A stretch of DNA of 25,305 bases, from contig DAOUMD010000141.1 in NCBI GenBank assembly GCA_034412795.1, forward strand, positions 1 through 25,305. The letters run 5' to 3'. The position numbers were made by a program, and so were the translations under genes. Below are positions 1 to 22,349 of this stretch, one piece after another (position 1 is the stretch's first letter; every line of letters begins with the position of its first letter). This DNA comes from Anaerolineae bacterium. Its GTDB lineage: Bacteria > Chloroflexota > Anaerolineae > 4572-78 > NAK82. The notes under the pieces are model-generated. The model searched no databases. It was not told the DNA's origin and saw nothing but the letters and a program-made list of their open reading frames with translations.

Positions 1-143
1 TACGAGCTCCGAGCAGGTCCGAGACCGGTGCTCTCGGCGGCAAATGTCGTGTTATGAACATGGATCAGCCGAAAAACCCCGTTTCGTGTAGAACATTTGT
101 CTAATGTGACATTGTCAAAGTAGTTACCGCTTCCAAATGGGTA

Positions 144-196
144 TTGACGACCGCGTAGAACCTGTGGTATATTGGTAACGGTACCATATGGTATGC
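144..196 (+). promoter_or_regulatory. Sigma70-like promoter (TTGACG 144-149, spacer about 18 nt, TGnTATATT 165-173) followed by a perfect 12-bp palindrome TACCATATGGTA (182-193) over the predicted TSS. Candidate LacI-type operator.
   Basis: Read directly: -35 and extended -10 hexamers. Palindrome is self-complementary. Lies about 65 bp upstream of the LacI-like ORF. Confidence 0.4.
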
Positions 197-259
197 GTGC
201 CACACCAGGCACTCGGTTGGCTCAGAAGACATCCCCTTCCCACTTCAGGTAATTGACGA

Positions 260-570
260 ATGCCCACCATACGCGATGTAGCGAAACGAGCAGGCGTCGC
301 TCCCACTCCGTCTCACGTGTCATCAATAACTCCGGCTATGTCAGCAAGAAGACGCGGCAACGCGTTGAGTCTGCAATCGCCGAGTTAGGATATGTCCCCA
401 ATACGCTAACTCGTAGCTTACGCTTTAAAAAGACGAACACGCTGGCGCTGATCGTACCCGATATTACCAACCCTTTCTGGACCACGGTTGCTTGTGGGGT
501 GGAGGACGCCGCCAGCGATCGTGACTTCAATGTAATCCTGTGCAATTTGGTTTATAATGAAAGGGGGTGA
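260..570 (+). pseudogene. LacI-family transcriptional regulator remnant: HTH plus start of the periplasmic-binding-like domain. Frameshifted near 295-300 and truncated after about 100 aa.
   Basis: ATG at 260 gives MPTIRDVAKRAGV (LacI HTH start), then the frame shifts to the ORF-track frame (SVSRVINNSGYVSKKTRQRVESAIAELGYVPN...ALIVPDITNPFW). A likely 1-nt deletion in the AGVxxTTVSRV region. Stop at 570, although LacI proteins are about 330 aa. Confidence 0.55.
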
Positions 571-742
571 GGGCCAACAAAAAGGGAAGCCTGTGGCCGC
601 CATCTATCCCCCTGAGTAGATGGTAATTGCGTCATGAATGTCTTCCACTCAGCACCTTTAGAATCAGGGACAGAACAGCCGGCTGGGCAGCCGGCTCGGT
701 ATCCACTCTCACAGTAGTTCTATCACTCAAGGAGGAGATCCG

Positions 743-2326
743 ATGAAATCCAGACTTTGGATGCTGGTGGCGGTGATCTTGATCATCGCCCTTTCAGCCT
801 GCGTTGCTCCGACACCGCAGACAGTAGTTGAAACGGTCGTCGTTGAGAAAGAGGTGGAGAAAGAGGTGGTAGTTACACAGGAGGTGGAGGTCGAGAAAGA
901 AGTCGAAGTCGTGGTCACCCCCACAGCCGAGGCCAAGCCCTACGAAGGGGTCGAAGTCAACGTCCTGACCTTCACCGGCCCTCAGATCGCCGAGCCGCTC
1001 CAACGCCGTGGGCCTGACTTCACCGAGCTGACCGGGGCCAAGATCAACGTGATTGTCGTCCCCTTCAACGAGCTGTATCAGAAGCTGTTGACTGATATGG
1101 CAACCGGGACGAACAGCTTCGATGCCTTTGTCTTTGCGCCCCAGTGGATGGTGGATTACATCACCCCTGGTTACCTGGAAGTCTTGACCGACCGGATAGC
1201 GGCCGACCCCGATTTGCAGTGGGGGGACGTGGCCCCCTTCTTCCGTGACTTCAGCGCCAGCTACCAGGGCGACATCTACACCATCCCGCTGGATGGTGAC
1301 TTCCACATGGGCTACTACCGCAGCGATCTGATCGATGAAGCACCCAGAACGTGGGAAGAATACCTCGAAATCGCCGCAGAGTTCCACGGCCAGGACCTCA
1401 ACGGAGACGGCGACCCTGACTACGGCTCCTGCATCTCTAAGAAGCGCGGCGCCCAGGCTTACTGGTTCATCACCGATTTCGCTGCGCCGATGATTCAGAG
1501 CCAGGGAACCTCCCAGGGCACGTTCTTCGATTTGGAGACAATGGAACCGTTGGTGAACAACGAAGCCTTCGCCAGAGCATTAGAGCTTTACGATGCGACC
1601 ACCCAGTATGGCCCACCGGACGAGCTGAACTTGGACGTGGGCGACACGCGCAGCCTCTTCACCTCCGGCCGCTGCGCTTTGTCCATAGACTGGGGCGACA
1701 TCGGCACTCTGGCCATCGACCCGGAGACTTCGATCGTGCAGGACAAGACCGGTGCTATGATCGCGCCCGGTTCCACCCAGGTGCTTGACTGGGAGACCGG
1801 GGAACTGGTGGACTGTGACGAGACCACCTGCCCCTATGCGGTCGACGGCGTGAACTACGCGCCCTTCGCCGCCTATGGCGGCTGGTCGGGTGGCATCAAC
1901 GCCGCCGCCGATCCCCTCGTCAAGGACGCGGCCTACGCCTTCTTCTCCTACATGGCGCAGCCGGCCCAGGCCAACGAAGACGTCACCATCGGCAAGACAG
2001 GCTTCAACCCCTACCGCACCTCCCAGTTCCTGAACCGCCAGGCGTGGGTGGAGGCGGGCATGAGCCCGAAGGCGGCCAGTGACTACCTGGGCGCCATCGA
2101 GGGCAGCCTGGCCAGCCCGAACATGGTGCTCGACCTGCGCGTCCCGCAGAACCAACGCTATCAAGGGGTGGTCCTCGACCAGACCGTCAGCCAGTACCTG
2201 GCCGGTGAGATCACCTTAGAAGAAGCTATGCAGCAGATCTACGACGGCTGGGAGGAGATCACCGAGGAGCTGGGCCGCGAGGAGCAGCTTGAGGCTTACC
2301 GCGGCACCCTGGGTGTCACCAAGTAG
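743..2326 (+). CDS. ABC transporter substrate-binding lipoprotein (family 1, carbohydrate type).
   Basis: RBS AAGGAGG 7 nt upstream. Signal peptide with lipobox LSAC. E/K/V-rich linker (VEKEVEKEVVV...) typical of thermophile and Chloroflexi SBPs. SBP_bac_1-like body. Followed by two permease genes. Confidence 0.9.
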   Translation: MKSRLWMLVAVILIIALSACVAPTPQTVVETVVVEKEVEKEVVVTQEVEVEKEVEVVVTPTAEAKPYEGVEVNVLTFTGPQIAEPLQRRGPDFTELTGAKINVIVVPFNELYQKLLTDMATGTNSFDAFVFAPQWMVDYITPGYLEVLTDRIAADPDLQWGDVAPFFRDFSASYQGDIYTIPLDGDFHMGYYRSDLIDEAPRTWEEYLEIAAEFHGQDLNGDGDPDYGSCISKKRGAQAYWFITDFAAPMIQSQGTSQGTFFDLETMEPLVNNEAFARALELYDATTQYGPPDELNLDVGDTRSLFTSGRCALSIDWGDIGTLAIDPETSIVQDKTGAMIAPGSTQVLDWETGELVDCDETTCPYAVDGVNYAPFAAYGGWSGGINAAADPLVKDAAYAFFSYMAQPAQANEDVTIGKTGFNPYRTSQFLNRQAWVEAGMSPKAASDYLGAIEGSLASPNMVLDLRVPQNQRYQGVVLDQTVSQYLAGEITLEEAMQQIYDGWEEITEELGREEQLEAYRGTLGVTK

Positions 2327-2340
2327 TCTGATTGAAACAA

Positions 2341-2427
2341 CCTTCCCGGAAACTCCAAGTTTCCGGGAAGGTAAACCGGTCAGATGACAGCCTCAAGGCC
2401 CGACCTCGGTCGGGTCGGACCTTGAGG
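2341..2427 (+). terminator. Two intercistronic stem-loops between the SBP and permease genes: a 13-bp perfect stem 2341-2371 and an imperfect 14-bp stem 2391-2427. No U-tract, so probably mRNA-stabilising or attenuating hairpins.
   Basis: CCTTCCCGGAAAC / GTTTCCGGGAAGG are exact reverse complements. The second hairpin is CCTCAAGGCCCGAC...GTCGGACCTTGAGG. Confidence 0.5.
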
Positions 2428-2461
2428 CTCCCTCCCTGATCCCCTGGAGGTGAGACAGTCA

Positions 2462-3634
2462 ATGCAAGTTGAACCAACAACTCAGGAGCCGACCGGGTCC
2501 GCTGCTGGCCTTGAGACCAATCGCGAACGGCAAAGCCGATTTCATGCGCTAGGCACTTATTCAGAACGTGTGGCGGGCAATGTGTTTATATTGCCCGCGG
2601 TCTTGGTTGTGCTCTTCCTGGCAATTTTCCCCTTGATCATCTCCCTGTATCTGTCGCTGTCACGCTTTAAGTTCGTCAAGGGCGGTTTTGAGTTCAAGTT
2701 TGTGGGACTGGCTAACTATAAGAAACTGCTGAGCGGCAGCGAAAAGACACACTTTTTGGGCTCAATGACCGATCCATCACCGCTTGGTTGGTTGATCTTT
2801 GGGGGCGTTGTTGTGCTCCTTATCCTGTCTCTGGTACGCTATTTCCGAGGCGAGCAGATATCTGTCGGAGGAGCGATTGGGCGTGTCCTGGCGGCCGTGG
2901 TTGTGGCCCTGCTCACCTGGCTCCTGGTGCGTACGCTTAGCCCCGATGGCCGGCCAGGCACTGTCGTCGTGACTCTGCTCTATGTGTTTGTTGGCATCGC
3001 CATCCAGTATTCCCTGGGACTTGGACTGTCACTGCTGGCCACCCAACGTCTTCCTGGTCGGCGTTTCTTTCGCGTGGTTTTCTTGCTGCCCATGATGATC
3101 ACCCCGGTAGGGGTGGCCTATATGTTCCGCATGTTGACCGATACCGACAAGGGACCCTTTCAGCCCATCTGGCAGGCGTTGGGGCTGGGACTCTATTCCT
3201 GGGTCAACGATCCTTGGGGCGCGCGGGCGGCGGTGATGATCGGCGACATCTGGCAATGGACCCCCTTCATGTTCATCGTGCTGCTGGCCGCCCTGGAGGG
3301 CCAATCGCTCGAGCTTTTAGAAGCTGCCCTGGTGGACGGGGCCAGCCGATGGCAGACTTTCTGGAAAATCACTTTTCCCCAGATCTTGCCCGTCAGCACC
3401 ACCTTGATCCTGATTCGTATGATCGAGGCCTTCAAGATTGTGGATTTACCTAACGTGTTGACCAACGGCGGGCCAGGTACGGCCACCGAGTCGATGACGC
3501 TGCAGGCCTTCATCACGTGGCGTGCCCTTGACCTGGGTGGGTCGGCGGCTATCGCCTATATGCTGCTTTTCCTGGTCACGTTTATCGGATTGGCTTATGT
3601 CAATCTAGTTCGTGGCCGCGTCGCGGAGGTGTGA
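2462..3634 (+). CDS. ABC transporter permease (MalF/UgpA-like, binding-protein-dependent transport inner-membrane component).
   Basis: RBS GGAGGTGA before ATG 2462 (the ORF-track start at 2450 is GTG). Multi-TM protein with a permease signature region. The extra central hydrophobic insert is MalF-like. Confidence 0.85.
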   Translation: MQVEPTTQEPTGSAAGLETNRERQSRFHALGTYSERVAGNVFILPAVLVVLFLAIFPLIISLYLSLSRFKFVKGGFEFKFVGLANYKKLLSGSEKTHFLGSMTDPSPLGWLIFGGVVVLLILSLVRYFRGEQISVGGAIGRVLAAVVVALLTWLLVRTLSPDGRPGTVVVTLLYVFVGIAIQYSLGLGLSLLATQRLPGRRFFRVVFLLPMMITPVGVAYMFRMLTDTDKGPFQPIWQALGLGLYSWVNDPWGARAAVMIGDIWQWTPFMFIVLLAALEGQSLELLEAALVDGASRWQTFWKITFPQILPVSTTLILIRMIEAFKIVDLPNVLTNGGPGTATESMTLQAFITWRALDLGGSAAIAYMLLFLVTFIGLAYVNLVRGRVAEV

Positions 3635-3638
3635 CCAG

Positions 3639-4670
3639 ATGATTAAGAACTTGTTCCGGCGCAAATCACTTATGGCCCTATCGCCCGCGGGGATGATATT
3701 GTCATATCTGGTATTGGGATCCTGGACCTTGGTGGTGCTCTTCCCACTCTATTGGCTTCTGGTTACCTCGTTTAAGCTGCCCATCGACGTAAACATGGGC
3801 CCGTTTTACATTCCCTTTGTTGATTTCCAACCATCCCTCCACGCATGGGAGTACATCCTGGTTGGCGACCTGGCCAACGACACCAAGCGGAACTTTATGA
3901 ACACACTGATTGTAGCGCCTATCAGCGCCTCGCTGGCTCTGTTATTGGGGACGGGCGCAGCCTATGGTCTGACCCGCTTCGATTACCGGCCGCGCTTAGG
4001 CGCGATCCTGGCCTTCATCGGTTGCCTGGCATTGGTCATCTTTGCTATTACGCTGGGAGTTCCCTGGCAGATTGCTATAGCCGTCGGCGTCGTTCTCTTT
4101 ATCCTTTTCCTGCAAACTATTGGTAAACGCCTGAGGCGATCTCTGGCCAACAACGACATTGCCTTCTGGTTGATCTCCCAGCGCATGCTGCCTCCCGTGG
4201 CGGTGGTCATCCCCATCTACGTGTTGTTCCAGCGTCTGAAGCTGTTGGATACCCACAGCGCCTTGATCATCACCTATCTGGCCATCAACCTGCCCATCGT
4301 GGTCTGGCTGATGCGTGATTATTTCCAGACCATTCCGCTAGAGCTGGAAGAGTGCGCCCAAATCGATGGTGCGTCGCGCTATCGGACCTTCTGGTCGATT
4401 GTGTTGCCTCTGGCCGTTCCGGGTCTGGTAGCCACCTTCCTATTCGTGCTGGTTTTCGCCTGGAACGAGTACCTGCTGGCCTTATTCCTTTCGGGGGCGA
4501 AGTCCCAGACGTTGCCATTGACAATAGCTGCCCAGAACGCCACCCGCGGACCCCAATGGTGGTATATGTCGGTCCTGATTCTGATCATGATCATGCCCGT
4601 GATCCTCATCGCCATCCTTTTGGAACGCTACATTGCGCGCGGTTTGCTGGTCGGCGCTGTCAAGGGCTGA
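3639..4670 (+). CDS. ABC transporter permease (MalG/UgpE-like).
   Basis: GGAGG 9 nt upstream of ATG 3639. Stop/start arrangement gtgTGAccagATG with the previous gene. Multi-TM protein with an EAA-like loop region (ECAQIDGASRYRTFWSIVLP). Confidence 0.85.
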   Translation: MIKNLFRRKSLMALSPAGMILSYLVLGSWTLVVLFPLYWLLVTSFKLPIDVNMGPFYIPFVDFQPSLHAWEYILVGDLANDTKRNFMNTLIVAPISASLALLLGTGAAYGLTRFDYRPRLGAILAFIGCLALVIFAITLGVPWQIAIAVGVVLFILFLQTIGKRLRRSLANNDIAFWLISQRMLPPVAVVIPIYVLFQRLKLLDTHSALIITYLAINLPIVVWLMRDYFQTIPLELEECAQIDGASRYRTFWSIVLPLAVPGLVATFLFVLVFAWNEYLLALFLSGAKSQTLPLTIAAQNATRGPQWWYMSVLILIMIMPVILIAILLERYIARGLLVGAVKG

Positions 4671-5179: not shown

Positions 5180-6289
5180 ATGAAATCCCTATCCGAAACA
5201 ACCATCCACATCACCCCTCAATACTTCACTGGGGGCGAAACGACTCTAGTCGAAGCTGGCGCGTTATCAGCCTCCACGTTCTTATTCGAAAGCGGTGTAT
5301 GCGGGCTGCGCCTCAAGAATGAGTTGGGCCAACTGGTAACCCTGCCCTTCCAGGGACAGCAGATCTGGTCGGCCGAGTTCGGTGGTCGCAACCTGACCAT
5401 GAAATCTATGTTCGACCAGCCACGCCCCACCCGCGAATACCTGGAGACCTACGGCGGTTTTTTACTCCACTGTGGGGTAACCGCGATGGGTGTGCCTACT
5501 GCCGAAGACACCCATCCTCTACACGGTGAATTGCCCAATGCGCCCTATCAGAAGGCCTATCTGGTCGTCGGCCAGGATGACGGCCAGGGTGGCATGGGGT
5601 CCTACATAGGGCTGGGGGGTACCTATCAGCATACCGTCGCCTTTAACCACAATTACATCGCCCAGCCGCTGATCAAGCTTTACGCCGGCTCCAGCCTGTT
5701 CAGGGTGACCATGACCGTCACCAACTTGAAGCAGTCCGAGATGGAGTTTATGTACCTGGCCCATGTCAATTTCAGACCGGTGGATAACGGGCGCTTGGTA
5801 TATAGCGCTCCGTGTAACCCCGAACACGTGCGTGTGCGCAGGAGCATCCCCTCCCACGTCAAGCCTCCTCCGGGTTACGTCGAGTTTCTTGATGAACTGG
5901 AGCGGCAGCCTGAAAGGCACAACCTGCTGGCTCCCGACCTGCCCTTTGATCCGGAGGTGGTTTTCTTCATCGATTACCTGGCTGATGAAGACGGATGGGC
6001 GCATACTATGCAAATCCACCCGGATGGGAGCGCCGATTACATTCGCCACCGCCCCGATCAATTAGACACGGGCGTCCGCTGGATCTCTCGCACCGGGGAT
6101 CAAGACGCGCTGGGCCTTATCCTGCCGGCCACCGCCGAGCCGGAAGGCTACCTGGCCGAGAAGGACAAGGGGAATATCAAAATCGTCCCACCCAAGGGTG
6201 TATTCCAGCTCGAAATGGAGATGGGGACTTTGACACCGGATGAGGCCCAGCGCATGGGTGAGAAGATCACGCAAATATTGGCCAGTTAG
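5180..6289 (+). CDS. DUF4432 / aldose-1-epimerase-like (mutarotase-fold) protein. Likely sugar-metabolism partner of the ABC importer.
   Basis: RBS GAGGTAG before ATG. 369 aa. HPLHGEL motif and overall pattern recalled from DUF4432-family proteins. Assignment made from memory only. Confidence 0.55.
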   Translation: MKSLSETTIHITPQYFTGGETTLVEAGALSASTFLFESGVCGLRLKNELGQLVTLPFQGQQIWSAEFGGRNLTMKSMFDQPRPTREYLETYGGFLLHCGVTAMGVPTAEDTHPLHGELPNAPYQKAYLVVGQDDGQGGMGSYIGLGGTYQHTVAFNHNYIAQPLIKLYAGSSLFRVTMTVTNLKQSEMEFMYLAHVNFRPVDNGRLVYSAPCNPEHVRVRRSIPSHVKPPPGYVEFLDELERQPERHNLLAPDLPFDPEVVFFIDYLADEDGWAHTMQIHPDGSADYIRHRPDQLDTGVRWISRTGDQDALGLILPATAEPEGYLAEKDKGNIKIVPPKGVFQLEMEMGTLTPDEAQRMGEKITQILAS

Positions 6290-6296
6290 ATATGGC

Positions 6297-6535
6297 ATAG
6301 TTCATTTTGCCAAGAGAACTGGTAAACAATTTGGCCTGCTTTGCCAGACAAATTCGTAAAACGTAAGGCGTAAAGCGTAATGATTCTGGGCGAATGCGCC
6401 TGGCAAATGTGCCTTCAAGTAATCCACCGAAATAAATTACACGGAGACGCGGGCTTCCAGGCTTCATAGCAACATCAGAACCGTGCAGATAATTTCGGTG
6501 GATTACTCACGCATCACGTTTTACGTTTTACGAGG
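6297..6535. repeat. Copy 1 of a structured repeat element with nested inverted repeats (MITE-like or structured-RNA-like).
   Basis: 6297-6481 is about 95% identical (9 mismatches in 185) to 25121-25305. Internal IRs: AGTAATCCACCGAAAT (6418-6433) / ATTTCGGTGGATTACT (6492-6507); CGTAAAACGTAA (6355-6366) / TTACGTTTTACG (6521-6532); TTTGCCAG / CTGGCAAA. Confidence 0.7.
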
Positions 6536-6577
6536 TTACTACCCTTGATTTGACCGGTAAGAAGTGTCAACCAAATA

Positions 6578-6889
6578 GTGAAGCATCCCGACGTAACTGT
6601 GAAGATTGACGCCCATCAGCATTTTTGGCGCTACACGCCGCAAGAATACGGTTGGATCAACCAGGATATGGCAATTCTCCCAACGGATTTCCACCCATAT
6701 CTCGAAGTTGTCTTTGAGGCTTTTGGCCCTCACCGGATCATGTTTGGCTCTGACTGGCCAGTTTGTACCCTAGCGGGTACCTATGCCCATGTGACCGGCA
6801 TCGTCTCCGACTATACCCAAGCGCTTTCGTCCGAAGAGCAGGCCCATGTCTGGGGCGGTACTGCCAGAAAGTTCTATGGGCTGGAGTAG
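6578..6889 (+). pseudogene. Amidohydrolase-2 (TIM-barrel metal-dependent hydrolase) remnant with an internal deletion: N-terminal HxH motif fused to the C-terminal FGSDWP segment.
   Basis: IDAHQHFW (N-terminal metal ligands) and RIMFGSDWP (C-terminal Asp motif) lie only about 60 aa apart. Intact family members are about 280 aa. GTG start. Confidence 0.5.
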
Positions 6890-6917: not shown

Positions 6918-7151
6918 TTACAACCAACGGATGGCTTTGCTTGGACAACTACGGACGCACTTCTTGCATCCTTTGCATGCCATCGCATAATCGACATGAG
7001 CATGGCGGTGCTGGAATAGAATAGCTTTTCCCAGGACATGGTTAGGACACGATTCCACGCATTTCCAGCAGGCCTGGCACCTGTTGGTGTTGAGCTCGAT
7101 ATACTTTGTCCTCACGTGCCTTGGTAATGGTAAGTGCAGTTTTATAGTCAT
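6918..7151 (-). CDS. 2[4Fe-4S] dicluster ferredoxin-domain protein.
   Basis: Two CxxCxxCxxxCP motifs (CQACWKCVESCP and CKGCKKCVRSCP). GGTGA RBS 6 nt before ATG. Confidence 0.7.
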   Translation of the reverse strand: MTIKLHLPLPRHVRTKYIELNTNRCQACWKCVESCPNHVLGKAILFQHRHAHVDYAMACKGCKKCVRSCPSKAIRWL

Positions 7152-8339: not shown

Positions 8340-9113
8340 ATGCTCAGAGACTTATTTCTCGAAGAGCGTCGGCATGAGATACTGAGACAAGTTAGCCAAC
8401 GTGGGCGGGTCTCGGTTGCCGAACTCAGTCGGCGGTTCGGCGTATCGGAGGTGACCATCCGCTCCGACCTGCAAGCCCTCGCCGAATGCAACTTGCTCGT
8501 GCGCACCCACGGAGGCGCCGTCCCCGCCACGCGCGGCTTGTACGACCTGTCACTGGCGTCGCGCCGTCAGCGGCAGGTACAGGAGAAAAGCCGCATTGGC
8601 CAGGCCGGCGCAGCGCTGGTGGCTGACGGCGACGCCATCTTCCTCGACAGCAGCAGCACCGCCTTAGCCATTGCGGCGCATCTAAAAGACCATCGCCACT
8701 TGACGATTATCACCAATGGTTTGGCCGTCGCTCAGGAGATGCTTGATGCCCCGGGTGTGATGGTGGTGATGGTAGGTGGCACGTTGCGGCGTGACACCGC
8801 CTCACTGGTCGGAACCGACGGCCTGGAAATGCTGCGTAAGTATAACATTCAAAAGGGATTCTTCGGCGCACACGGCATCAGCTCCATCGAGGGCTTGACC
8901 GATGTCAGCGCCGAGGAGGCCGAGATCAAGCGTCCCCTGGTGGTTGCTTGCCGTCAGGTCATCGCTGTGCTGGACGCGACCAAGTGGGGTCAGGTGGGCC
9001 TGGCTTCCTTCGCCCACATGGAGCAGATCCACAGCGTGATCACCGACCGTCACGCGCCCCCTGATCTGGTCGAGCAGGTTCGTTCGCTGGGAATTGAAGT
9101 AGTTCTGGTTTGA
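8340..9113 (+). CDS. DeoR/GlpR-family transcriptional regulator (HTH plus sugar-phosphate-binding DeoR C-terminal domain).
   Basis: N-terminal [40 protein letters not shown]-terminal DeoRC-like region ([15 protein letters not shown]...ITNGL). Confidence 0.85.
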
Positions 9114-9124
9114 ATATCATGCCT

Positions 9125-9162
9125 TAACCTTCCCGGAAGTTTCGGAACTTCCGGGAAGGTTA
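9125..9162 (+). terminator. Perfect 17-bp stem-loop (TAACCTTCCCGGAAGTT tcgg AACTTCCGGGAAGGTTA) after the DeoR gene. No U-tract.
   Basis: The two arms are exact reverse complements. Confidence 0.5.
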
Positions 9163-9223
9163 TCCACACACTGGTCCGAACATCACGCGCCGAACAGCGC
9201 GTCAATCAAACGGAGGATACGAA

Positions 9224-11314
9224 ATGGAAGCAACTGCATCGCTCACCGCCGAGAATATATCGGCCATGATAGAGGAACAGGCACTCACTAAAGAAGATCT
9301 GATGAATTACCTGCGCCAGGTGATGGAGATTCGGGCCTTTGAGAACAACATCTCCATTTTGCTGGGTAAGGCAGTTCTCAAGGGCGCGTCCCACCTGTAT
9401 GCCGGACAGGAGGCCACTGCCGTCGGCGCCGTCGGCGCGCTACGTGACGATGACCTGGTCACCAGCACTCACCGCGGTCACGGTCACGCCCACGCCCACG
9501 GCGATAGCGCGGCCAAGACGCCTGAAGCCAAGCAGGAGCACTACAATAAGATGATGGCCGAGGTCTTGGGGCGCTCGGGCGGCTATTGCAAAGGCAAGGG
9601 TGGTTCGATGCACATCGCCGACGTGGATCACGGCAACATGGGCGCAACCGGCATCGTGGGCGGTAACATCCCGGTAGCAGTGGGAGCCGCCCTGGCACAG
9701 AAATTGCAGGACACCGATCGCGTGGTGCTGTGCTTCTTCGGCGATGGCGCCTCCAACACGGGTAACTTCCACGAGGCGCTCAATATGGCCAGTCTGTGGG
9801 ACCTGCCGGTGATCTTCGTCGTCGAGAACAACATGTATGCTATGTCCGTCCCCTGGGCCAAAGCCAGTAAGCTGCCCAACATCGCCGATCGCGCTTGTGC
9901 CTATGGCATCCCCGGCGAGGTGGTGGACGGCATGGATGTCCTGGCCGTGCGTGGCGCTGTGGCCGAGGCGGTGGAACGCGCCCGGCGCGGCGAAGGTCCC
10001 ACCCTGATCGAAGCCAAGACCTATCGTTGGTACGGCCATTCCCATTCCGATCCGCGTGCCTACCGGACCCGCGATGAGGAGGCAGCCTGGAAGGAGCGCG
10101 ATCCCATCACCGTGCTCAAGAACAATATGCAGACCGTCAGTTTGCTGGATGAGGCCGAATTTGAAGACCTGGATAAAGCGGTCAAGGAAAAGCTTGATGT
10201 CGCCATGGCTTTCAGCGAAGCCTCGCCGGAGCCCGACCCGGACGAGCTGTGCACCGACGTGTATGCCCCCTCTAAATTCACCCAGGCGGACATCGATGCC
10301 GAGCGCGAGTTGCGCCAGCGGGTGCGCAATGGCTCGGATATACGAGAGATACCCTATGCCCAGGCTTTGCAAGAAGCCCTGCGTGAAGAGATGGAGCGCG
10401 ACGAGCGGGTCTTCATCTTTGGCGAAGACGTCGGGCTGTACGGTGGGGCTTACGGCGCGACCCGTGGCCTGTGGGAAGAGTTTGGCGAATGGCGCGTGAT
10501 CGACACGCCCATCTCCGAAGCGACGGTCGGTGGCGCCGCAGTAGGAGCGGCCATGGCCGGCATGCGCCCCGTGGCCGAGATCATGTACGTGGACTTCACT
10601 CCGCTGGCCATGGACCAGATCGCCAACCAGGGCGCCAAAAATCGTTACATGTTCGGCGGCAAAACCAGCGTGCCCATGGTCATCCGCACCGAGGGCGGCG
10701 CCGGGCGGGCCATCGCCGCCCACCACTCACAAAGCCTGGAGGCGCTCTGGACCCACTTCCCCGGCATCTACGTGGTCATGCCCGCCACGCCGTACGATGC
10801 CAAGGGGCTGCTCAAAGCCGCCATTCGCGACGACAACCCCATCATGTTCATCGAGCACAAGATGCTCTACAAGGAGAAGGGGCCGGTTCCCGAAGAGGAG
10901 TACCTTGTCCCGTTGGGTGTGGCCGACGTGAAGCGCGAGGGAGCGGACGTGACGCTGGTGACCTACTCGCGTATGGTGCTGCGCGCCCTGGAGGCGGCCG
11001 AGATCCTGGCTGAGGAAGGAATTGACGTCGAGGTGGTTGACTTGCGCACCCTCAAGCCGTTGGACATCGATACCGTCATCAACTCGGTGGTAAAGACCGG
11101 GCGTTTTGTGGGCGTCACCGAAGGCTACGAGAACACCAGCTTCATCAACGAGGTGATGGCCCAGGTCAACGATTTGGCCTTCGATTGGCTGGACGCGCCC
11201 ATGGTACGCGTGGCGGCGGCCAACGTGCCGGTGCCCCGTGCCGAGATACTGGAAGATATGGCCATCCCCAACGTGGGACGCATCGTCGAGGCCTGCAGGA
11301 AGGTGGTGAGCTGA
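9224..11314 (+). CDS. Fused 2-oxoacid (pyruvate/acetoin-type) dehydrogenase E1 component, with alpha (TPP-binding) and beta (transketolase-like) domains in one chain.
   Basis: The alpha half carries the TPP motif GDGASNTGNFHEALNMASLWDLPVIFVVENNMYAMS. The beta half carries EDVGLYGGAYGATRGL...transketolase_C. RBS CGGAGGA. 696 aa. Confidence 0.85.
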   Translation: MEATASLTAENISAMIEEQALTKEDLMNYLRQVMEIRAFENNISILLGKAVLKGASHLYAGQEATAVGAVGALRDDDLVTSTHRGHGHAHAHGDSAAKTPEAKQEHYNKMMAEVLGRSGGYCKGKGGSMHIADVDHGNMGATGIVGGNIPVAVGAALAQKLQDTDRVVLCFFGDGASNTGNFHEALNMASLWDLPVIFVVENNMYAMSVPWAKASKLPNIADRACAYGIPGEVVDGMDVLAVRGAVAEAVERARRGEGPTLIEAKTYRWYGHSHSDPRAYRTRDEEAAWKERDPITVLKNNMQTVSLLDEAEFEDLDKAVKEKLDVAMAFSEASPEPDPDELCTDVYAPSKFTQADIDAERELRQRVRNGSDIREIPYAQALQEALREEMERDERVFIFGEDVGLYGGAYGATRGLWEEFGEWRVIDTPISEATVGGAAVGAAMAGMRPVAEIMYVDFTPLAMDQIANQGAKNRYMFGGKTSVPMVIRTEGGAGRAIAAHHSQSLEALWTHFPGIYVVMPATPYDAKGLLKAAIRDDNPIMFIEHKMLYKEKGPVPEEEYLVPLGVADVKREGADVTLVTYSRMVLRALEAAEILAEEGIDVEVVDLRTLKPLDIDTVINSVVKTGRFVGVTEGYENTSFINEVMAQVNDLAFDWLDAPMVRVAAANVPVPRAEILEDMAIPNVGRIVEACRKVVS

Positions 11315-12690
11315 TGGCAGAGGAGTTCTTCATTCCCCAATTGGGGCAAACCGTCGAAGAGGTCACCCTCATCAAGTGGTTGGTCGAAGACGGCGCCCAG
11401 GTGACCCAGGGACAGGAGATCCTGGAGGTAGAGACCGACAAAGCCGTCTTCCCCGTCGAAGCCATCGCCAGCGGCTATTTGCACATCGGTCCCTACAAAG
11501 AGGGTGACGTGGTGCCTGTGTTGGCCGTGGTGGCCGTCATCGGCGCAAAAGATGATAAGTTTGAGGTGAAGGGCGAGCCTGAGCCCGCGGTGGAGGAGGC
11601 CGAAAGCAAGACGGTTGAGGCTGCCCCGGCTGCTCCGGTCGAGGCAGCACCTTCCCAGGTCCGAGAAGATGGGCGCGTCTTTGCCTCGCCGCGCGCCCGC
11701 AAGCTGGCCCACGAGAAGGGCGTGGACCTGGCCCGGGTGACTCCCAGCGGTGGCGGTGGCGTCCGCGTTGCCGAACGCGACGTGCTGGCTTATCTGCGCT
11801 CGCTGCCCAAAGCCACGCCCGTGGCCCAGAAGATGGCCGCCGAAGCCAGCCTCGATTTACGACAGGTGTCCGGCACCGGTCCGGGCGGCAAGATCACCCG
11901 CGAAGACGTCGAGCGTGCCCTTGCCGTGCCACCAGCACCACCGGCGGCTGTGCCGCCGGCGCCCACCCCCTTGCCGGAAGTCGAAGTCCTGGAGCGCGTG
12001 CCGCTCAAGGGGGTGCGGGGCATCATCGCCCAGCGCATGGCGACCAGCGTCCACACCACCGCCCGCGTGACGTTGATGATGGAGGTTGACGCCACCCAAT
12101 TCGTCGACATGCGGACGCGTCTCAAGGCGCGCGTCAGTGAGGAATGGGGCTTCGCCCCCGGCTACAACGACCTCCTGGCCAAGATCGTCGCCGCCGCGCT
12201 GCGCAAGTTCCCCTACATGAACGCCCGGCTGACGGCCAACGCGCTCGAATACCTGGCGCCTGTCAACATGGGCATGGCCGTCGACACCGAGCGCGGGTTG
12301 CTGGTGCCCGTCATCCGCGACGCCGACAAGAAGAGCCTGCGCCAGTTTGGTGCCGAGTTCCGCGAGCTGGCCGAGGGGGCGCGCACCGGCCGCATCTCGC
12401 CCGACGCTTTGAGCGGCGGCACCTTCACCATCACCAGCCTGGGCACGTACGACGTGGATGCCTTCACCCCCGTCATCAACCTGCCCGAAGCGGCCATCCT
12501 GGGCGTGGGCCGCATCACCGAAAAGGCCGTGGTGCGCGACGGGGAGATCGTCGCCCGTCACATGTGGACGCTATCCCTCGTCTTCGACCACCGCCTGGTC
12601 GACGGCGCCCCGGCCGCCCGCTTTTTGCAGTACATCAAGGAGCTGATCGAAGAGCCCTATTTGTGGGTGGCGGAGGGGCAGGAAGGCTGA
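11314..12690 (+). CDS. Dihydrolipoamide acyltransferase (E2) with one lipoyl domain, two peripheral-subunit-binding domains and a catalytic domain.
   Basis: Lipoyl-Lys in VETDKA. Two PSBD-like segments (ASPRARKLAHEKGVDLARVTPSGGGG; SGTGPGGKITREDVERA). Catalytic DHRLVDGA motif. Start ATG overlaps the E1 stop (TGATG). Confidence 0.85.
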   Translation: MAEEFFIPQLGQTVEEVTLIKWLVEDGAQVTQGQEILEVETDKAVFPVEAIASGYLHIGPYKEGDVVPVLAVVAVIGAKDDKFEVKGEPEPAVEEAESKTVEAAPAAPVEAAPSQVREDGRVFASPRARKLAHEKGVDLARVTPSGGGGVRVAERDVLAYLRSLPKATPVAQKMAAEASLDLRQVSGTGPGGKITREDVERALAVPPAPPAAVPPAPTPLPEVEVLERVPLKGVRGIIAQRMATSVHTTARVTLMMEVDATQFVDMRTRLKARVSEEWGFAPGYNDLLAKIVAAALRKFPYMNARLTANALEYLAPVNMGMAVDTERGLLVPVIRDADKKSLRQFGAEFRELAEGARTGRISPDALSGGTFTITSLGTYDVDAFTPVINLPEAAILGVGRITEKAVVRDGEIVARHMWTLSLVFDHRLVDGAPAARFLQYIKELIEEPYLWVAEGQEG

Positions 12691-12831: not shown

Positions 12832-12895
12832 GCCGGGGCGTCGTTGCCTGGCCCGCAGGCCAAGACCGGCAATGATGCCCCGGCTTTTTGTTTTT
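12832..12895 (+). terminator. Intrinsic terminator of the E1-E2 operon: stem GCCGGGG...CCCCGGC followed by TTTTTGTTTTTG.
   Basis: Stem arms 12832-12838 / 12877-12883 with a T-run at 12884-12895. Two short hairpins precede it (12714-12730 and 12773-12791). Confidence 0.55.
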
Positions 12896-12987
12896 GCTCG
12901 CTTGCGTCCCGCCCCACCCACCCCGCCCCGTCATCATCTCAAAAGCCCCCAGCTTCCCCCCCGCCAACCCGCGTCGAGAACGTTCCC

Positions 12988-13036
12988 CAATCTACCAGCA
13001 TACCAATCTACCAACCCACCAACCCCAAATCTACCA
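12988..13036 (+). promoter_or_regulatory. Three direct repeats of (C)AATCTACCA in a C-rich tract immediately upstream of the SPFH-gene promoter. Candidate activator-binding array.
   Basis: Copies at 12988-12998, 13003-13013 and 13026-13036, read directly. Confidence 0.35.
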
Positions 13037-13046
13037 AAAACCGACT

Positions 13047-13178
13047 TGATTTTTGTCGTAAAACATGGTATCATAGACATAATCATTTGTCATAACAGCA
13101 CAACCTGTTGTGTGCTGGTTAACAAGCGGACATGGTGCGAACTCCTCTCACTCCTCGACGCACCCTTTTTTGGTCATA
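13047..13178 (+). promoter_or_regulatory. Promoter (TTGATT 13047-52, N16, TGgTATCAT 13066-74) plus a 110-nt leader. The leader holds a hairpin at 13097-13116 and a terminator-like stem GGTGCG...CGCACC followed by CTTTTTT (13134-13171).
   Basis: Hexamers and stems read directly. RBS GGGAGGTGG before ATG 13193. Confidence 0.4.
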
Positions 13179-13192
13179 CGGGAGGTGGATGG

Positions 13193-14950
13193 ATGACGGC
13201 CAATACCGTAACCGCTGAGCAGTCTTCTGCATCAAGGGGATTGGGCACTCTCGGGACAGCCTTATTCTTTCTCTTAGTTCTGGTAGGTGTCTTTTTCTTC
13301 TATAGCCACTTCTTCGATTCGGGATATTTCGGAGACGATCTCTGGTGGCACCTGGGCACGATATGGTTATTGGTTGGGGTGGGGATATATGTCCTGTTTT
13401 TGCTGAATCCCGCCAAGCGAAGGTTCTGGTTGTTTGTCTACCTTATCTTCGTGCTTACTATCGCCTTCGGTGCTTTTTTCCAAAGCCAAATCACTGGCGG
13501 AACAGGGGTCACTCGCCTCATCCAGAATAGCCCTCTGCTCACCTCCTTATTCGGGGGATACTTCAAAAGCGTGATCTGGTCACTGGTATTTGGCCTATTG
13601 ATCGCGCTCTCTTTGGTTATTGTGCCCCTGCTCATCATTGCCTTCGCCGCCTCCGAATACGTGCTGGCCCTGCACGAAATCGACGGTGTTCGCCGTCGGG
13701 ACGCCGTGAGTTACGTGATTGCGTTGATACTGGGCATCAACCAGCCCTTCATCGTGGTCGAAGACGGCCAGGCGCTGGTTACCAAGGAGGCTGGCAAGAT
13801 CAACGTCATTGGTGGGCCAGGCAAGTTGATCATCAAGCAGGGCAACGTAGTTGTGTTGGAACGCGGCGGCAAGATCACGCGCGTGCTAAACGCCGGCGTC
13901 CACAAGCTTAAACCGCTGGAGAAGATACGCAATGTCTTCAACTTGGGCCGCCAATCCAACTCCGATGAGATAGAGCACGTTCTGACCAAGGATCGCATAC
14001 CGCTAAAGATCAAGTTGGGTATCGGCGTCCAGATTGAGCCGGCCTCCGAGGCCGACAAACGCCCCGAAAGCCGCATCTCGCCCGATGGGGAAGCGCTGAC
14101 CCCAAGACTGGACGACGGTATGTACGCAGTATACGAGGGCACCATTCGTAAGGCGGCTCAGATGTCCCAGGCTACCTCTTTTGCCAAACGTGAATTCAAG
14201 AAGTGTGACGAAGAGCAGGTATGTCAGGACGTGCAAGAGACCACCTGGAAAAAAGTCGCCGGCGGACTGCCTGAAGGTGATTTGCGCGACCATATTATGA
14301 GCCATCGATTTGACGAGTTATTTGAACTGGTTGACAGCGCACCCGGGGAAAAACCTGAGATTCGGGTCGACAAGCGCAAAATTTATGAGATTGAGCAAGC
14401 CATCCTTGAAAAAATCAAGCCCGGCAAACTAAAGGGACTGGGGGTGCTGGTGCACGGTGTGGATATTGGGAAGATCGAGTTTCCAGAAGAAGCGAAAGAC
14501 CTGTTGTTAAATCGCTGGGGAGCTCCGTGGCAACAGCAAATACAACTTATAGAGGCTAAGGCAAAAGCGAAGGGTGAGTTGCAAGCCAAATTACTGGCCG
14601 CTCAAGGCGACCTGGAGGCAACACGGATGGAAGCACAGGGTGAACGGGAAATCGCGGATCTGAAAGCTCAAGCTATTGTAATCAGTGCCCGCGCCAAAGC
14701 CCAGAAACGGGTTATGGAAGGGCGTAGTCAAGCAGAGGCGCGGGCAGCCTTCTTCCAGTTTATAGTGGAAGCACTTCAAGTGGATGGGCGCCCAATAGAT
14801 CCCCAACTAATGGGAGCCATACTGAAGGAATTAGCTTGCTCCTTTGCCTCAGTTAATGATCTTGAGACTTTCATGAGGGTGCATGGCAGATTGAATCGGC
14901 AAGCAGATTTCTCATTGGGTCAGGACAATGGGACAGTAGCAAGTGATTGA
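13193..14950 (+). CDS. SPFH/band-7 (stomatin/HflK/flotillin-like) membrane protein with a polytopic N-terminal domain (about 5 TM), a large insert in the SPFH core and a coiled-coil tail.
   Basis: VVLERGGKITRVLNAGVHKLKPLEKIRNV...HVLTKDRIPLKIKLGIGVQIEP aligns to the SPFH core (VVLRFGK..L.PGLHF.IPF...V....VLTKDG..V.VD.VVQYRI). C-terminal GVLVHGVDIGKIEFPEEA matches the end of the SPFH domain. Ala/Gln/Lys-rich coiled coil. Paralog of 22984-24570. The ORF-track start at 12872 is an upstream low-complexity extension. Confidence 0.75.
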   Translation: MTANTVTAEQSSASRGLGTLGTALFFLLVLVGVFFFYSHFFDSGYFGDDLWWHLGTIWLLVGVGIYVLFLLNPAKRRFWLFVYLIFVLTIAFGAFFQSQITGGTGVTRLIQNSPLLTSLFGGYFKSVIWSLVFGLLIALSLVIVPLLIIAFAASEYVLALHEIDGVRRRDAVSYVIALILGINQPFIVVEDGQALVTKEAGKINVIGGPGKLIIKQGNVVVLERGGKITRVLNAGVHKLKPLEKIRNVFNLGRQSNSDEIEHVLTKDRIPLKIKLGIGVQIEPASEADKRPESRISPDGEALTPRLDDGMYAVYEGTIRKAAQMSQATSFAKREFKKCDEEQVCQDVQETTWKKVAGGLPEGDLRDHIMSHRFDELFELVDSAPGEKPEIRVDKRKIYEIEQAILEKIKPGKLKGLGVLVHGVDIGKIEFPEEAKDLLLNRWGAPWQQQIQLIEAKAKAKGELQAKLLAAQGDLEATRMEAQGEREIADLKAQAIVISARAKAQKRVMEGRSQAEARAAFFQFIVEALQVDGRPIDPQLMGAILKELACSFASVNDLETFMRVHGRLNRQADFSLGQDNGTVASD

Positions 14951-14985
14951 TCCGCTCGCGCAGCCTCTGTTGAGACAAGGGATTC

Positions 14986-15105
14986 TAAGAACCTGTTTGA
15001 AAATTATTAACCCGTTGTCCCCCTACATATTGGGGGACACTGACCGATACGCCCACATGTAGGTTCAAACCGTTCCAAAACGTGCTAAGAGCCTGTTTGA
15101 AAATT
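14986..15105 (+). promoter_or_regulatory. Two 20-bp direct repeats TAAGARCCTGTTTGAAAATT exactly 100 bp apart, flanking a 7-bp-stem palindrome (GTCCCCC tacatatt GGGGGAC, 15017-15038). This is the upstream region of the S24 gene.
   Basis: Read directly: 14986-15005 and 15086-15105. Confidence 0.35.
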
Positions 15106-15129
15106 GGCTCTAAGTTAGGAGTGGCAATT

Positions 15130-17346
15130 ATGGCATCCCATAGACAAGCCAGTGATGAGATTATTCAGTTTCTGGAGGATTTTCAAGGTACATCACCAGA
15201 TTTGCCTATTTCAGTGGTCGGTCATTGGCAGGAGGCGATGGCAATATGCAAGAAAACAAAGCCGAATTGGAGCAAAGCTGCAGATTTTTGCAATTGCATT
15301 GCAACGGTTTTGAATGGATTGCGTGGCAGTGGAGGGGATTTGGGGCAACTTGAAAAATCTCAGGGACAGATTTCGATTCTTTTGGGTGCCATAAGTCTGG
15401 GCCAGAAAGACTGGTCTGCGGCAAGTTACTATTTTGAACAAGGAGCCAGACGGCTGAGGCAATGGGGGCACACGTCTCTCGAAAGTCTCGCCTATTTTGG
15501 CCGGGCTTTGACTCATAAGCAGGAAGAAAACTGGCCTGGGGCCTTGGAAGCGGCGCAAAAAGCATTGGATGCAATCCACGGCCTTCCTGTTCCTGATAAG
15601 TCGATGCATACTAAGCATTTGCAAAAGCGGATTGAGGAAGGGATCAGATCCATCGGGGAGGTCTCCGCGAGAGTTATTGCGAAACAACCACCAAGTCGGA
15701 GGCCAACGCCTTCTAGGTCTATGTCTAGCCCTCCCCTTCCAATACCGATAGTAAGCAATATTGCAGCTGGCCTCGGCGTCATTGTCGAAGAAAACATCGA
15801 GAATTATCTCCTCTTAGACGACGATCGCCGTAACGACGTCGACTTTGGGGTAAGAGTGGTTGGGGAAAGTATGAAAGGTGACGGCATCCTGCCGGGGGAC
15901 ATCGCCCTTATCCGCCAACAGCCAATAGTTGAAATGGGAGAGATCGCTGCTGTCGTTGTTACGACGCCTACAGGTTCCGAGGGTGTGCTTAAGCGATACC
16001 ACCTTGCATACGAAGAACGGCCGAGTATGTTTCACTGGTTCCTCAAGTCCAGCAATCCGGCCAGTGAGCACCTAGTTGTCATACCCAGTGGCGCAGATAT
16101 TATTGCAATCAAAGCTATATACGAGAATGCAATTCGATCTGGCCGAATACGCAATCCGATTGAGTATTACGAGGACGCTGAACTAATCATTGCCGGAAAA
16201 TATGTCGGATCAGTAAAGAGTATACCGATATCCAGTGACATCAGTGCCTTTACCGCCGGGCCAGGGCGGATTGGAGATGAAAACACTGAGGGGTTCATAT
16301 CTCTAGATGTGAGTTATCGCACTATGGTTGACTTTGGGGTAAGGGTGATAGGAGACAGTATGAAAGGTGATGGTATCCTGCCTGGGAATATTGCACTTAT
16401 CCGTCAGCAGCCAGTTGTTGGGGAAGGAGAGATTGCCGCCCTTGTGATTACAACATCGACTGGCAGGGAAGGGGTACTTAAAAGGTACTACCCCGAAGAA
16501 AGTGAGGGTTTGCAGCACTGGCTTCTTAAGTCTAGTAACCCCGTGGCCAAGGATTTAGTTGTTATACCGCCTCATACAGATGTAGATCAGATTCGGAATC
16601 TATATGCCAGGGAAATCCAGAGTGACAGGGTCGAGTTTTATGAAGATGCTGAACTAGAAGTCGTTGGCAAATATGTTGAGTGTTTCGAGGAGGAATCTTT
16701 TTCAGTTCCAGTTATCTCCACCATAGATAGGGTAAAGCAACCATCAGTGAAGACGGCTGTTGAGAGTTTAGGCGGTTACGCTGAAGTAGAGATTCTTGCA
16801 GGCAGGATTGCGGAAACTGTTAGTGAGCGTCTAACCGGGGCTACACATCAACTAGCCGAGGCTAATTACAGATATTATGACGAACTCAAAGGTATGATTC
16901 GGAAACTTCCGTTTGCTGGTATTGAAGTGCTCGATAACTTCGAAGGATTTGTAATTGCAGAAATTCCTGATGCTAGAAAGGAAACTGGCCAAGCCCCAAA
17001 CAAGGATCGCTATATTTTGCATGGGGCACAGAAAAAGCACGAGATACATATCTCCATCCAATCGGTTGAGCCTTTGGGAGCTACTGACAGCGTTGTTGAG
17101 ATTATTCGAATAATTGATGGTGAGGACGTGGAATATGTCAACTTTGTAGCCAGGTTGGACTGTAATACACTCGATTTTGAACAAGCTGAGTTTACAATTT
17201 CTGTTCCATCCAGATATGCAAAGCCGTCTATTCCGAAAAAAGTCGTTTCCATTACAGGCGAACGAGGGATACATAATCTATTCATTCATATCTCTCAGAA
17301 GAATACACTTGTCCAAGTCCTCTTCATAGAATTGGAGATTCGCTAG
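15130..17346 (+). CDS. Multidomain protein with a TPR-like helical N-domain, a Pro/Ser linker, two tandem LexA-like S24 peptidase domains and a C-terminal domain of about 230 aa that I cannot assign.
   Basis: Both repeats carry the Ser-Lys dyad context (RVVGESMKGDGILPGD...GVLKRY and RVIGDSMKGDGILPGN...GVLKRYY), closely matching LexA (RVSGMSMKDIGIMDGD...VTVKRL). Each is preceded by a LexA-like cleavage region (NIAA-GLGV and FTA-GPGR) about 33 residues before the Ser. RBS AGGAGTGG before ATG 15130. Confidence 0.8.
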   Translation: MASHRQASDEIIQFLEDFQGTSPDLPISVVGHWQEAMAICKKTKPNWSKAADFCNCIATVLNGLRGSGGDLGQLEKSQGQISILLGAISLGQKDWSAASYYFEQGARRLRQWGHTSLESLAYFGRALTHKQEENWPGALEAAQKALDAIHGLPVPDKSMHTKHLQKRIEEGIRSIGEVSARVIAKQPPSRRPTPSRSMSSPPLPIPIVSNIAAGLGVIVEENIENYLLLDDDRRNDVDFGVRVVGESMKGDGILPGDIALIRQQPIVEMGEIAAVVVTTPTGSEGVLKRYHLAYEERPSMFHWFLKSSNPASEHLVVIPSGADIIAIKAIYENAIRSGRIRNPIEYYEDAELIIAGKYVGSVKSIPISSDISAFTAGPGRIGDENTEGFISLDVSYRTMVDFGVRVIGDSMKGDGILPGNIALIRQQPVVGEGEIAALVITTSTGREGVLKRYYPEESEGLQHWLLKSSNPVAKDLVVIPPHTDVDQIRNLYAREIQSDRVEFYEDAELEVVGKYVECFEEESFSVPVISTIDRVKQPSVKTAVESLGGYAEVEILAGRIAETVSERLTGATHQLAEANYRYYDELKGMIRKLPFAGIEVLDNFEGFVIAEIPDARKETGQAPNKDRYILHGAQKKHEIHISIQSVEPLGATDSVVEIIRIIDGEDVEYVNFVARLDCNTLDFEQAEFTISVPSRYAKPSIPKKVVSITGERGIHNLFIHISQKNTLVQVLFIELEIR

Positions 17347-17349
17347 CCA

Positions 17350-18627: not shown

Positions 18628-18825
18628 AATCAGTTCATACAATTGAACGCCGAACGAAAAAATTAGAAAGCACATTAGACCAAATGATTAACAATATGGC
18701 CCCTTCACAATTGACAGTAGCGCCAACTAGGCAAGAAAGTCGGAGCACCACTCTCAGATTCGTTGACGTGTAAAGTTGGTAAGAAGACGCCAGCATTAAT
18801 TCAATTGCATAATTGAGGAGGAAGT

Positions 18826-20858: not shown

Positions 20859-20920
20859 TGCTGGCTGTGTGAAACAGCCGCTGCCATCACGTCCCGCAGC
20901 GTACACCGGATGGAGTAAAC

Positions 20921-21928: not shown

Positions 21929-22012
21929 CCATAGTGATACTCGATGGCCGAATCGTGGCCTGTCACATTCAATCAGTTGACAGGCAATAACCGCACTAAC
22001 CGCACAACTTTC

Positions 22013-22040
22013 TTGACAGAGCTGCACAATGTGGTATAAT
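22013..22040 (+). promoter_or_regulatory. Near-consensus sigma70 promoter: TTGACA (22013-18), N16, TGgTATAAT (22032-40).
   Basis: Hexamers read directly, in an AT-rich intergenic region. Confidence 0.5.
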
Positions 22041-22320: not shown

Positions 22321-22349
22321 TTGACAAATGTTATGGCGTATGTTAGAAT
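22321..22349 (+). promoter_or_regulatory. Second strong promoter: TTGACA (22321-26), N17, TAGAAT (22344-49).
   Basis: Read directly. Lies about 160 nt upstream of ATG 22510. Confidence 0.45.

Follow-up and report, generated by a model that had tools for sequence, protein, structure and literature searches.

The window, as we call the whole 25,305-nt stretch of DNA analysed here, carries two copies of a structured repeat in direct orientation. A repeat search of the window aligned positions 6297-6481 with 25121-25305 at 95% identity, with a start-to-start spacing of 18,824 bp. The second copy (25121-25305, plus strand) is cut by the window end, and we read its remainder on contig CAZCVV010000067.1 (locus L001) of MAG GCA_964501865.1, which has no mismatches to the window over 12,322 nt. 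On this source contig copy 2 continues for 45 bases to the match of position 6526; the full match between the copies spans 6297-6526, with 220 of 230 positions identical (95.7%), and ends abruptly thereafter. The repeat search and the L001 sequence bear out the basic observation of the first-pass annotation, a structured repeat present twice in the window, directly oriented and about 95% identical.

The extent and composition of the repeat require revision. It had been described as an element of about 240 bp; copy 1 occupies 6294-6589 on the plus strand (296 bp), and its right-hand 60 nt are common to other members of the family. The apparent right boundary at about 6526-6535 arises because copy 2 is interrupted there by another element, which we call C: past the position matching 6526, copy 2 has 48 nt of C and then unrelated DNA, and the right module of the repeat is missing. 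The arrangement first read as one element, nested repeats around a unique core, is in fact two elements, a mini-element B within a larger element A. Copy 1 is a complete, MITE-like A backbone with B nested in it, and a BLAST search with the family consensus covers 6300-6415 and 6509-6589. Of the perfect inverted repeats reported earlier, the 16-bp pair (6418-6433 and 6492-6507) and the core of 58 nt (6434-6491) stand; the second pair measures 13 bp (6354-6366 and 6521-6533). Extended imperfectly, the arms reach 27 nt and 25 nt, and both strands fold far more stably than shuffled sequence (z = -6.5 and -6.2).

Copy 1 lies 4 nt past the stop codon of a DUF4432 gene, whose closest named homologues are in Anaerolineae/Chloroflexota MAGs (73-80% identity), and 9 nt ahead of the start of an amidohydrolase remnant (6599-6889, plus strand). 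The remnant is the pseudogene that had been noticed at the left edge of the interval between the copies, and it has lost about 180 internal codons in frame: its residues 1-26 align to residues 18-43, and residues 28-96 to residues 225-293, of an intact 293-aa homologue (locus L017), and its Pfam match is confined to profile positions 222-289. The window's DeoR, E1 and E2 genes follow at 8340-12690, inside the bracketed interval, with DUF4432 outside it. Farther in, a low-GC block at 13-20 kb (42-52% GC) holds SPFH, S24 peptidase, CHAT and Pepco genes, for which PADLOC returned no matches.

For an empty-site comparison we used DUF4432 homologues of 80-88% identity, which yielded three informative contigs. 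DUF4432 is followed by DeoR, a fused E1 (696 aa) and E2 in L018, by URO-D, DeoR and E1 in L015, and by an aldo-keto reductase, the amidohydrolase (293 aa), ADH, VTT, DeoR and E1 in L017. Element A is missing at the equivalent DUF4432-side position in all three relatives (DUF4432 80-85% identical), and the three differ in what separates DUF4432 from DeoR. Copy 1 occupies the place of L017's aldo-keto reductase gene, which is compatible with a putative deletion next to copy 1 having removed that gene.

In its basic form A is 204 bp long (L020 and L003), and with B it is 296 bp. Its termini, GGCATGGTTCA on the left and TGAACCATCCC on the right, are 11-bp terminal inverted repeats complementary at 10 of 11 positions. 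We located both in six of six complete copies examined (five independent loci), and the right terminus also in L012. In copy 1 the left repeat is GGCATAGTTCA (6294-6304, plus strand), a sequence that copies retain at their left end and that pairs with the right end in the consensus fold; the right repeat is TGAAGCATCCC (6579-6589, plus strand), exactly where the similarity of copy 1, L002, L003, L011, L012 and L020 stops. Copies in independent contexts thus share the same two inverted termini as the limits of their similarity.

Between these termini, the two halves of A are imperfect reverse complements of each other, with ATGGTTCA, GGTTGACA and CGTAA heptads in common, and the A consensus forms a single end-to-end hairpin with a 37-nt loop (DNA dG -41 kcal/mol, z = -6.0). 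The left internal arm (6355-6382, plus strand) pairs with the right internal arm, CACGCATCACGTTTTACGTTTTACGA (6508-6533, plus strand), the arm that C interrupts in copy 2 and L002 at the match of 6526/6527. A triplication of CGTAA had been reported here; the left arm contains four, as the 7-nt units CGTAAAA CGTAAGG CGTAAAG CGTAATG. Heptad number in this arm varies among copies, L006a having one fewer and L007 an extra AAGG. The element is non-coding, with stops in all six frames of the consensus and a longest ORF crossing it of 66 aa. Spurious ORFs have been called across several A copies in public records (P0001, P0002, P0123). At the right end of A, TTGACC and AATAGT separated by an 18-nt spacer (6550-6579, plus strand) form an outward-facing promoter-like site. 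The hexamers are identical in L003, L012 and L020 and weaker in L002 and L011, and by consensus match this site may be a candidate outward promoter.

The source MAG GCA_964501865.1, of which about 70 kb of sequence was covered, has four A copies, on contigs 67 (twice), 57 and 318 (the window/L001, L002 and L020, respectively). Several unrelated metagenome projects contributed ten further A loci, of which L003 is in ENA and L005-L013 are on metagenome contigs, with L006 carrying a second, partial copy (L006b) beside L006a, and with L011 and L013 representing two samples of one locus. We found L002, in the same MAG, and L003, an ENA metagenome contig, through a protein query that corresponds to a minus-strand ORF over A (spurious ORF calls), and L020 through a plus-strand frame used as protein query. 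L005-L013 were found with an exact 20-mer common to all known copies, a sample biased to similar copies. Six copies are partial or decayed (L005, L006b, L007, L008, L010 and L012), and L012 has other insertions in both arms.

All A copies are intergenic, mostly 0-21 nt from a gene end, next to differing neighbour genes and in either orientation to them. A shares the strand of the adjacent gene in copy 1, L005 and L008; in L002, L006a, L007, L009, L010, L011/L013 and L012 the two are on opposite strands. In L002 a called aldolase ORF enters A and takes its stop codon inside the element. The A backbone 20-mer gave a single match in 185,579 species-representative genomes, in a coding sequence of a Chitinophagaceae MAG; because this sole match is a chance one, the A family is absent from those species representatives at exact-20-mer stringency. 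The exact B-arm 20-mer CCACCGAAATAAATTACACG had 0 matches in genome contigs and 0 in metagenome contigs, and viral contigs contained 0 matches to the A backbone 20-mer or to the B and C terminal repeats. With copy 1 as blastn query, neither PLSDB plasmids nor INPHARED phages gave a match, and nothing relevant came from a literature search for the assembly and sample accessions. None of the annotated collections searched contains a detectable sequence relative of A.

B is a palindromic mini-element of 90 bp whose terminal inverted repeats (AGTAATCCACCGAAAT) are 16 bp long and perfect; in copy 1 it lies at 6418-6507 (plus strand), flanked by TCA (6415-6417) and (T)CA (6507-6509). Copy 2 carries B at the same site and in the same orientation; its first 64 nt are within the window (25242-25305, plus strand), and the full B (L001 9329-9240) is 97.8% identical to that of copy 1. 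B is also present in L006a and L011/L013, and it is missing with precise boundaries from eight copies (L002, L003, L005, L007, L009, L010, L012 and L020). At L011/L013 it is reversed, with 70 of 90 matches in reversed alignment versus 57 of 90 in direct alignment (core, 42/58 versus 29/58), and it is flanked there by TTA on both sides, the triplet that B-less copies carry singly (GCCTTTACGC). The precise presence and absence, the 16-bp inverted ends and the TTA flanks identify B as a separate nested element with a 3-bp duplication.

C is a third component. In L002 it is 156 bp long, has inverted ends (CTCTACTGAAAAAA...) and follows ACGTTTTACGT in the right arm of A, and A resumes beyond it; copy 2 has the same A/C junction. 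Its target duplication is 4 or 11 bp, an ambiguity that arises because the target is itself a tandem heptad. We considered and dropped opposite orientations of C in copy 2 and L002; the shared 48 nt are probably the inverted end of C, the other end in L002 being internally deleted. Neither B nor C occurred outside A in the approximately 170 kb of sequence examined, so the independent mobility of the two rests on their presence and absence, inverted ends and flanking duplications.

Copy 1, copy 2 and L002, the MAG copies compared, form a mosaic. Between copy 1 and L002 there are 2 differences in the left module and 6 in the centre; between copy 1 and copy 2 the counts are the reverse, 6 in the left module and 2 in the centre. 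Copy 1 has B and lacks C, copy 2 has both, and L002 has C and lacks B; these three copies fail the four-gamete test, and their B/C states are incompatible with a simple tree.

The clearest trace of insertion is at L020, where a complete 204-bp A is bordered on both sides by a perfect 8-bp direct repeat, CTGTCATG (CTGTCATG-GGCATGG...CATCCC-CTGTCATG). Because these flanks are direct and not inverted, they are a duplication and no extension of the inverted repeats, and the chance of a perfect 8-bp repeat at fixed boundaries is about 1.5e-5 per copy. The flanks of L003 match at 4 of 5 bases, its contig ending after five. No 8-bp flanking duplication was found at copy 1, L002 or L011/L013, where 1-2 of 8 positions match. 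The duplication is thus present in only one of five independent complete A copies; the single clean instance is statistically strong, and the feature is not general. Recombination or adjacent deletion between copies leaves elements without flanking duplications, and the mosaic MAG copies are consistent with this. The suggestion that the repeats are recombination-prone therefore survives in a weaker form, based on the mosaic copies and the lack of matching flanks at most of them, and not in the form of island boundaries. No transposase lies beside A copies among the Pfam-annotated genes of the window and of the loci fetched by protein query, nor did an autonomous element with the ends of A turn up in the roughly 70 kb of the MAG covered.

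Element A is small and non-coding, has terminal inverted repeats and is dispersed in unrelated contexts, the features that characterize MITEs. We therefore consider the repeat very likely to be a new MITE family, with B nested in A, in uncultured Anaerolineae (Chloroflexota). The first-pass suggestion of a MITE or REP-like mobile repeat is upheld by the inverted ends, the lack of coding capacity, the many intergenic contexts in both orientations and the one 8-bp duplication. A would be a non-autonomous DNA transposon of about 204 bp, with 11-bp inverted ends and single strands folding to one hairpin. A DDE-type transposase encoded elsewhere would bind the ends of A and excise or copy it, and insertion with an 8-bp staggered cut would create the 8-bp target-site duplication. 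B would duplicate a 3-bp T-N-A target and sits at the base of A's central stem. Both window copies probably descend from an A variant already invaded by B, and C would later have struck the right arm of copy 2, which would also have lost its right end. The palindromes nested around a unique core would then mark the inverted termini of one transposon lying within another. Since then, recombination or deletion at the copies may have removed most duplications and produced the mosaic pattern of the copies.

B and C, two unrelated mini-elements, are each found at just one nucleotide position in A, and this regularity leaves some room for a further reading. From the two orientations and the different triplets (TCA versus TTA), B appears to have entered its A position twice independently. 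A could be a dedicated docking site that B and C each enter at one nucleotide-precise stem position, guided by sequence or structure, a proposal that we find doubtful but worth weighing. If the insertions of B and C were independent, target choice would be very precise. As an alternative, gene conversion between copies together with inversion could produce the same B and C data.

We think it improbable that A is a REP/REPIN-type palindrome spread by a RAYT and not by a cut-and-paste DDE transposase. RAYTs are IS200/IS605-like tyrosine transposases that act on single-stranded hairpins. A does share with REPs an extragenic, hairpin-forming character and a location near gene ends, and most of its copies are without flanking duplications. 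Against this stands the perfect 8-bp direct duplication at L020; to our knowledge, RAYT/IS200-type mobility makes no target-site duplication. The A unit, moreover, is about 200 bp long with true terminal inverted repeats, compared with 20-40 bp for REPs, and no RAYT gene was seen in the sequence examined, a small part of the genome. Targeting of A by other small insertions is a further resemblance, REPs being IS targets and landing sites for mobile DNA (Tobes & Pareja 2006, PMC1525189). Di Nocera et al. (2013, PMC3733652) define two REP superfamilies by a GTAG or CGTC tag, and this end tag is absent from the A arms CGTAAAACGTAAGGCGTAAAG and CTTTACGCATCACGTTTTACG.

The very stable folds predicted on both strands (z about -6), the intergenic copies very near stop codons and the strong conservation of the central loop of A across metagenomes could also suggest a structured ncRNA gene or a cis-regulatory RNA (a 3'-UTR stabiliser, terminator or sRNA), with B as a variable expansion domain. 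The structured ncRNA family proposed at first pass nevertheless finds neither an Rfam match nor compensatory change nor a fixed orientation to genes, and we judge an RNA function of this kind very improbable. Rfam 15 gave 0 matches at gathering score over the whole window, leaving A with no family match, and at E<=10 the sole match in 6250-6600 was BSR0626, at a chance-level 16.5 bits against a gathering score of 155. After removing B and C, we aligned the central modules of eight distinct sequences over 29 hairpin pairs; at 90% column identity this alignment has low power. Among these eight 90%-identical sequences, and within that low power, double-sided changes affect 0 of 29 pairs, 9 pairs depart by unpaired cells alone, and the covariation score is 0.015 versus 0.014 after shuffling, with 89.5% paired cells in both. 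In the long stems (helices 1-2), substitutions produce mismatches and are not compensated. This weak covariation test agrees with the mixed orientation of A to flanking genes, the commonness of truncated copies, the lack of a sigma-70-like promoter upstream and the occurrence of the B "domain" in both orientations, which is incompatible with RNA-level constraint.

The reversed B raises the question of a switch. With perfect 16-bp inverted repeats, and with both orientations at exactly one A position in different lineages, B might be an invertible segment that flips within A for phase variation. The flanking triplets differ between the orientations, TCA...(T)CA against TTA...TTA, and separate insertions fit this better than flipping. 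Eight A copies lack B altogether and have a clean single TTA, no recombinase gene lies near B, and the two samples of the L011/L013 locus have B in an identical orientation. We see a very slim chance of such a switch.

The two direct copies 18.8 kb apart, the interior low-GC block and the pseudogene adjoining copy 1 could point to an accessory segment, whose edges the repeats had been suggested to mark. We consider it extremely improbable that the copies bound an 18.6-kb unit of this sort as direct repeats (composite transposon, island or recombination cassette with the protease locus). In relatives DUF4432 is followed by 0-4 genes, DeoR, the fused E1 (696 aa) and E2, so that DUF4432, outside the interval, and DeoR, E1 and E2, within it, were neighbours ancestrally. 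The drop in GC starts past E2 (about 13 kb), some 6.5 kb inward from copy 1. Integrase, transposase and tRNA genes are all missing between the copies, copy 2 is without its right end, and A also occurs on two other MAG contigs and in unrelated metagenomes. The repeats therefore do not delimit an island.

As a MITE carrying a nested MITE, the region would be annotated neither as an RNA gene nor as an island boundary. This uncultured Anaerolineae lineage would have active or recently active small transposons between operon genes, and the A copies may carry an outward promoter-like site and supply homology for deletions and rearrangements. Of wider interest is the reuse of the same A positions by two mini-elements, which may reflect specific targeting or merely gene conversion between copies.

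Bacterial MITEs, non-autonomous derivatives of IS elements, include Correia/NEMIS of Neisseria, RUP of Streptococcus pneumoniae and Nezha of cyanobacteria. A resembles these elements in its size class (100-300 bp), non-coding sequence, terminal inverted repeats, whole-element hairpin and, at L020, flanking duplication, and likewise in its many dispersed intergenic copies, found in both orientations, some of them decayed, and in its possible outward promoter. A further example is MITEAba12 of Acinetobacter (PMC6382973). Unlike known MITEs, A has no sequence similarity in Rfam, PLSDB, INPHARED or the 185,579 species-representative genomes, shows an 8-bp duplication in one copy only, has arms of 7-nt CGTAA units, and contains two other mini-elements nested at fixed positions. 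With REP, BIME and REPIN sequences A has in common that it is an extragenic hairpin repeat by gene ends, a landing site for mobile elements and a recombination substrate, and it differs from them in its length of about 200 bp, its true inverted ends, the 8-bp duplication of its L020 copy and its lack of a GTAG/CGTC tag.

Nested MITEs, in which one MITE lies within another, have been described mainly in plant genomes. B inside A, with its own inverted ends and T-N-A duplication, and C inside A, with its own inverted ends, are like these cases; unlike them, B and C are found inside A only, each at one nucleotide position. Among MITEs, those that stem from the IS1031 subgroup (IS5 family) generate 3-bp TNA target duplications, and an assignment of B to an IS1031/IS5-type origin, suggested by its 3-bp duplication alone, is offered as a lead. 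The IS110/IS1111 elements that target REPs use a guide RNA. If A is indeed a docking site for B and C, it would resemble the REPs targeted in this way, with the difference that its passengers would be non-autonomous.

The open reading frames called across A, the MITE with a basic form of about 204 bp, encode 64-93 aa; they comprise one across copy 1 (window 6267-6467, minus strand), one across copy 2 (25010-25291, minus strand) and the public protein records P0001, P0002 and P0123. Some of these MITE-spanning frames stand in public records as "hypothetical proteins". None of the frames is a gene; all are artefacts of the repeat.

Copies of A carry further short repeats and insertions of their own. 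Every occurrence that we found of element C, the small element that interrupts the right arm of A, lay inside A. One is in L002, another contig of the same MAG, where it spans 9833-9988 (156 bp, with inverted ends CTCTACTGAAAAAAGGGTCTAAGCCGTC and ATTGGTGGGGCAAACGCAC) and where 34 nt are gone from one end, between AAAAA runs; another lies past the window end, at the equivalent of about 25351-25398. At the metagenome locus L012, an insertion of about 255 nt (31-285) occupies the left arm of A and holds internal direct and inverted repeats (GACGGAAAGAAACAC...). A stretch of 40 nt from this insertion resembles, at 80% identity, L002 10130-10169, just left of the A copy on that contig. An additional insert of 18 nt, CCTTGGACCCCTGTGGGG, is present in the right arm of A at the same metagenome locus; its reverse complement is similar to the beginning of the insertion in the left arm.

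The Amidohydro_2 gene at 6599-6889 is a remnant, missing about 180 internal codons, in frame, relative to the intact 293-aa homologue in L017, a related genome. In that relative the amidohydrolase has aldo-keto reductase, ADH and VTT genes for company. None of these three is present here; their place is taken by a ferredoxin-like ORF (6918-7151) and a TetR gene, both on the minus strand, and by a DUF4405 ORF. Directly past copy 2, to the right of the window, the source contig (L001 1-9125) carries four large signalling genes: two encode response-regulator/multi-GAF proteins of more than 1,000 aa, and two encode response-regulator/APH-kinase/TCAD9 proteins of about 520 aa. At its other edge, the window (1-72) reaches 72 nt further left than the start of the NCBI contig as calculated from the coordinates, and a Logan assembly of run SRR14802572 matches window 98-4472 without a mismatch; the window thus probably derives from a different assembly of that sample.

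Within window 12872-24570 lies a low-GC block, with a GC content of 42-52% between about 13 and 20 kb. This block encodes an SPFH/Band-7 protein of 692 aa, a protein of 754 aa that contains two S24 peptidase domains, a protein with a CHAT domain, one of 107 aa with a Pepco domain, and two proteins without a Pfam match (360 and 335 aa). A second SPFH protein, of 528 aa, is encoded on the opposite strand. Over 71 nt, the two SPFH genes resemble each other in inverted orientation (13808-13878 and 23915-23985). Within the S24 peptidase gene, a 166-nt direct repeat with 73% identity (15838-16003 and 16327-16492) corresponds to the two S24 domains recognised by Pfam and is therefore an internal domain duplication. 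Two shorter repeats may be regulatory sites: a 21-nt direct repeat (95% identity, 100-nt spacing; 14985-15005 and 15085-15105), which lies immediately before the start of the S24 peptidase gene and spans that start, and a 29-nt inverted repeat (79% identity; 19417-19445 and 19613-19641) in the gap that separates the Pepco gene from the next one.

When the proteins of the low-GC block, the SPFH, S24, CHAT and Pepco set, were compared with known systems in PADLOC, none of its models fitted them. The block resembles a protease-based cassette of an uncharacterised kind, which may have a role in conflict or defence.
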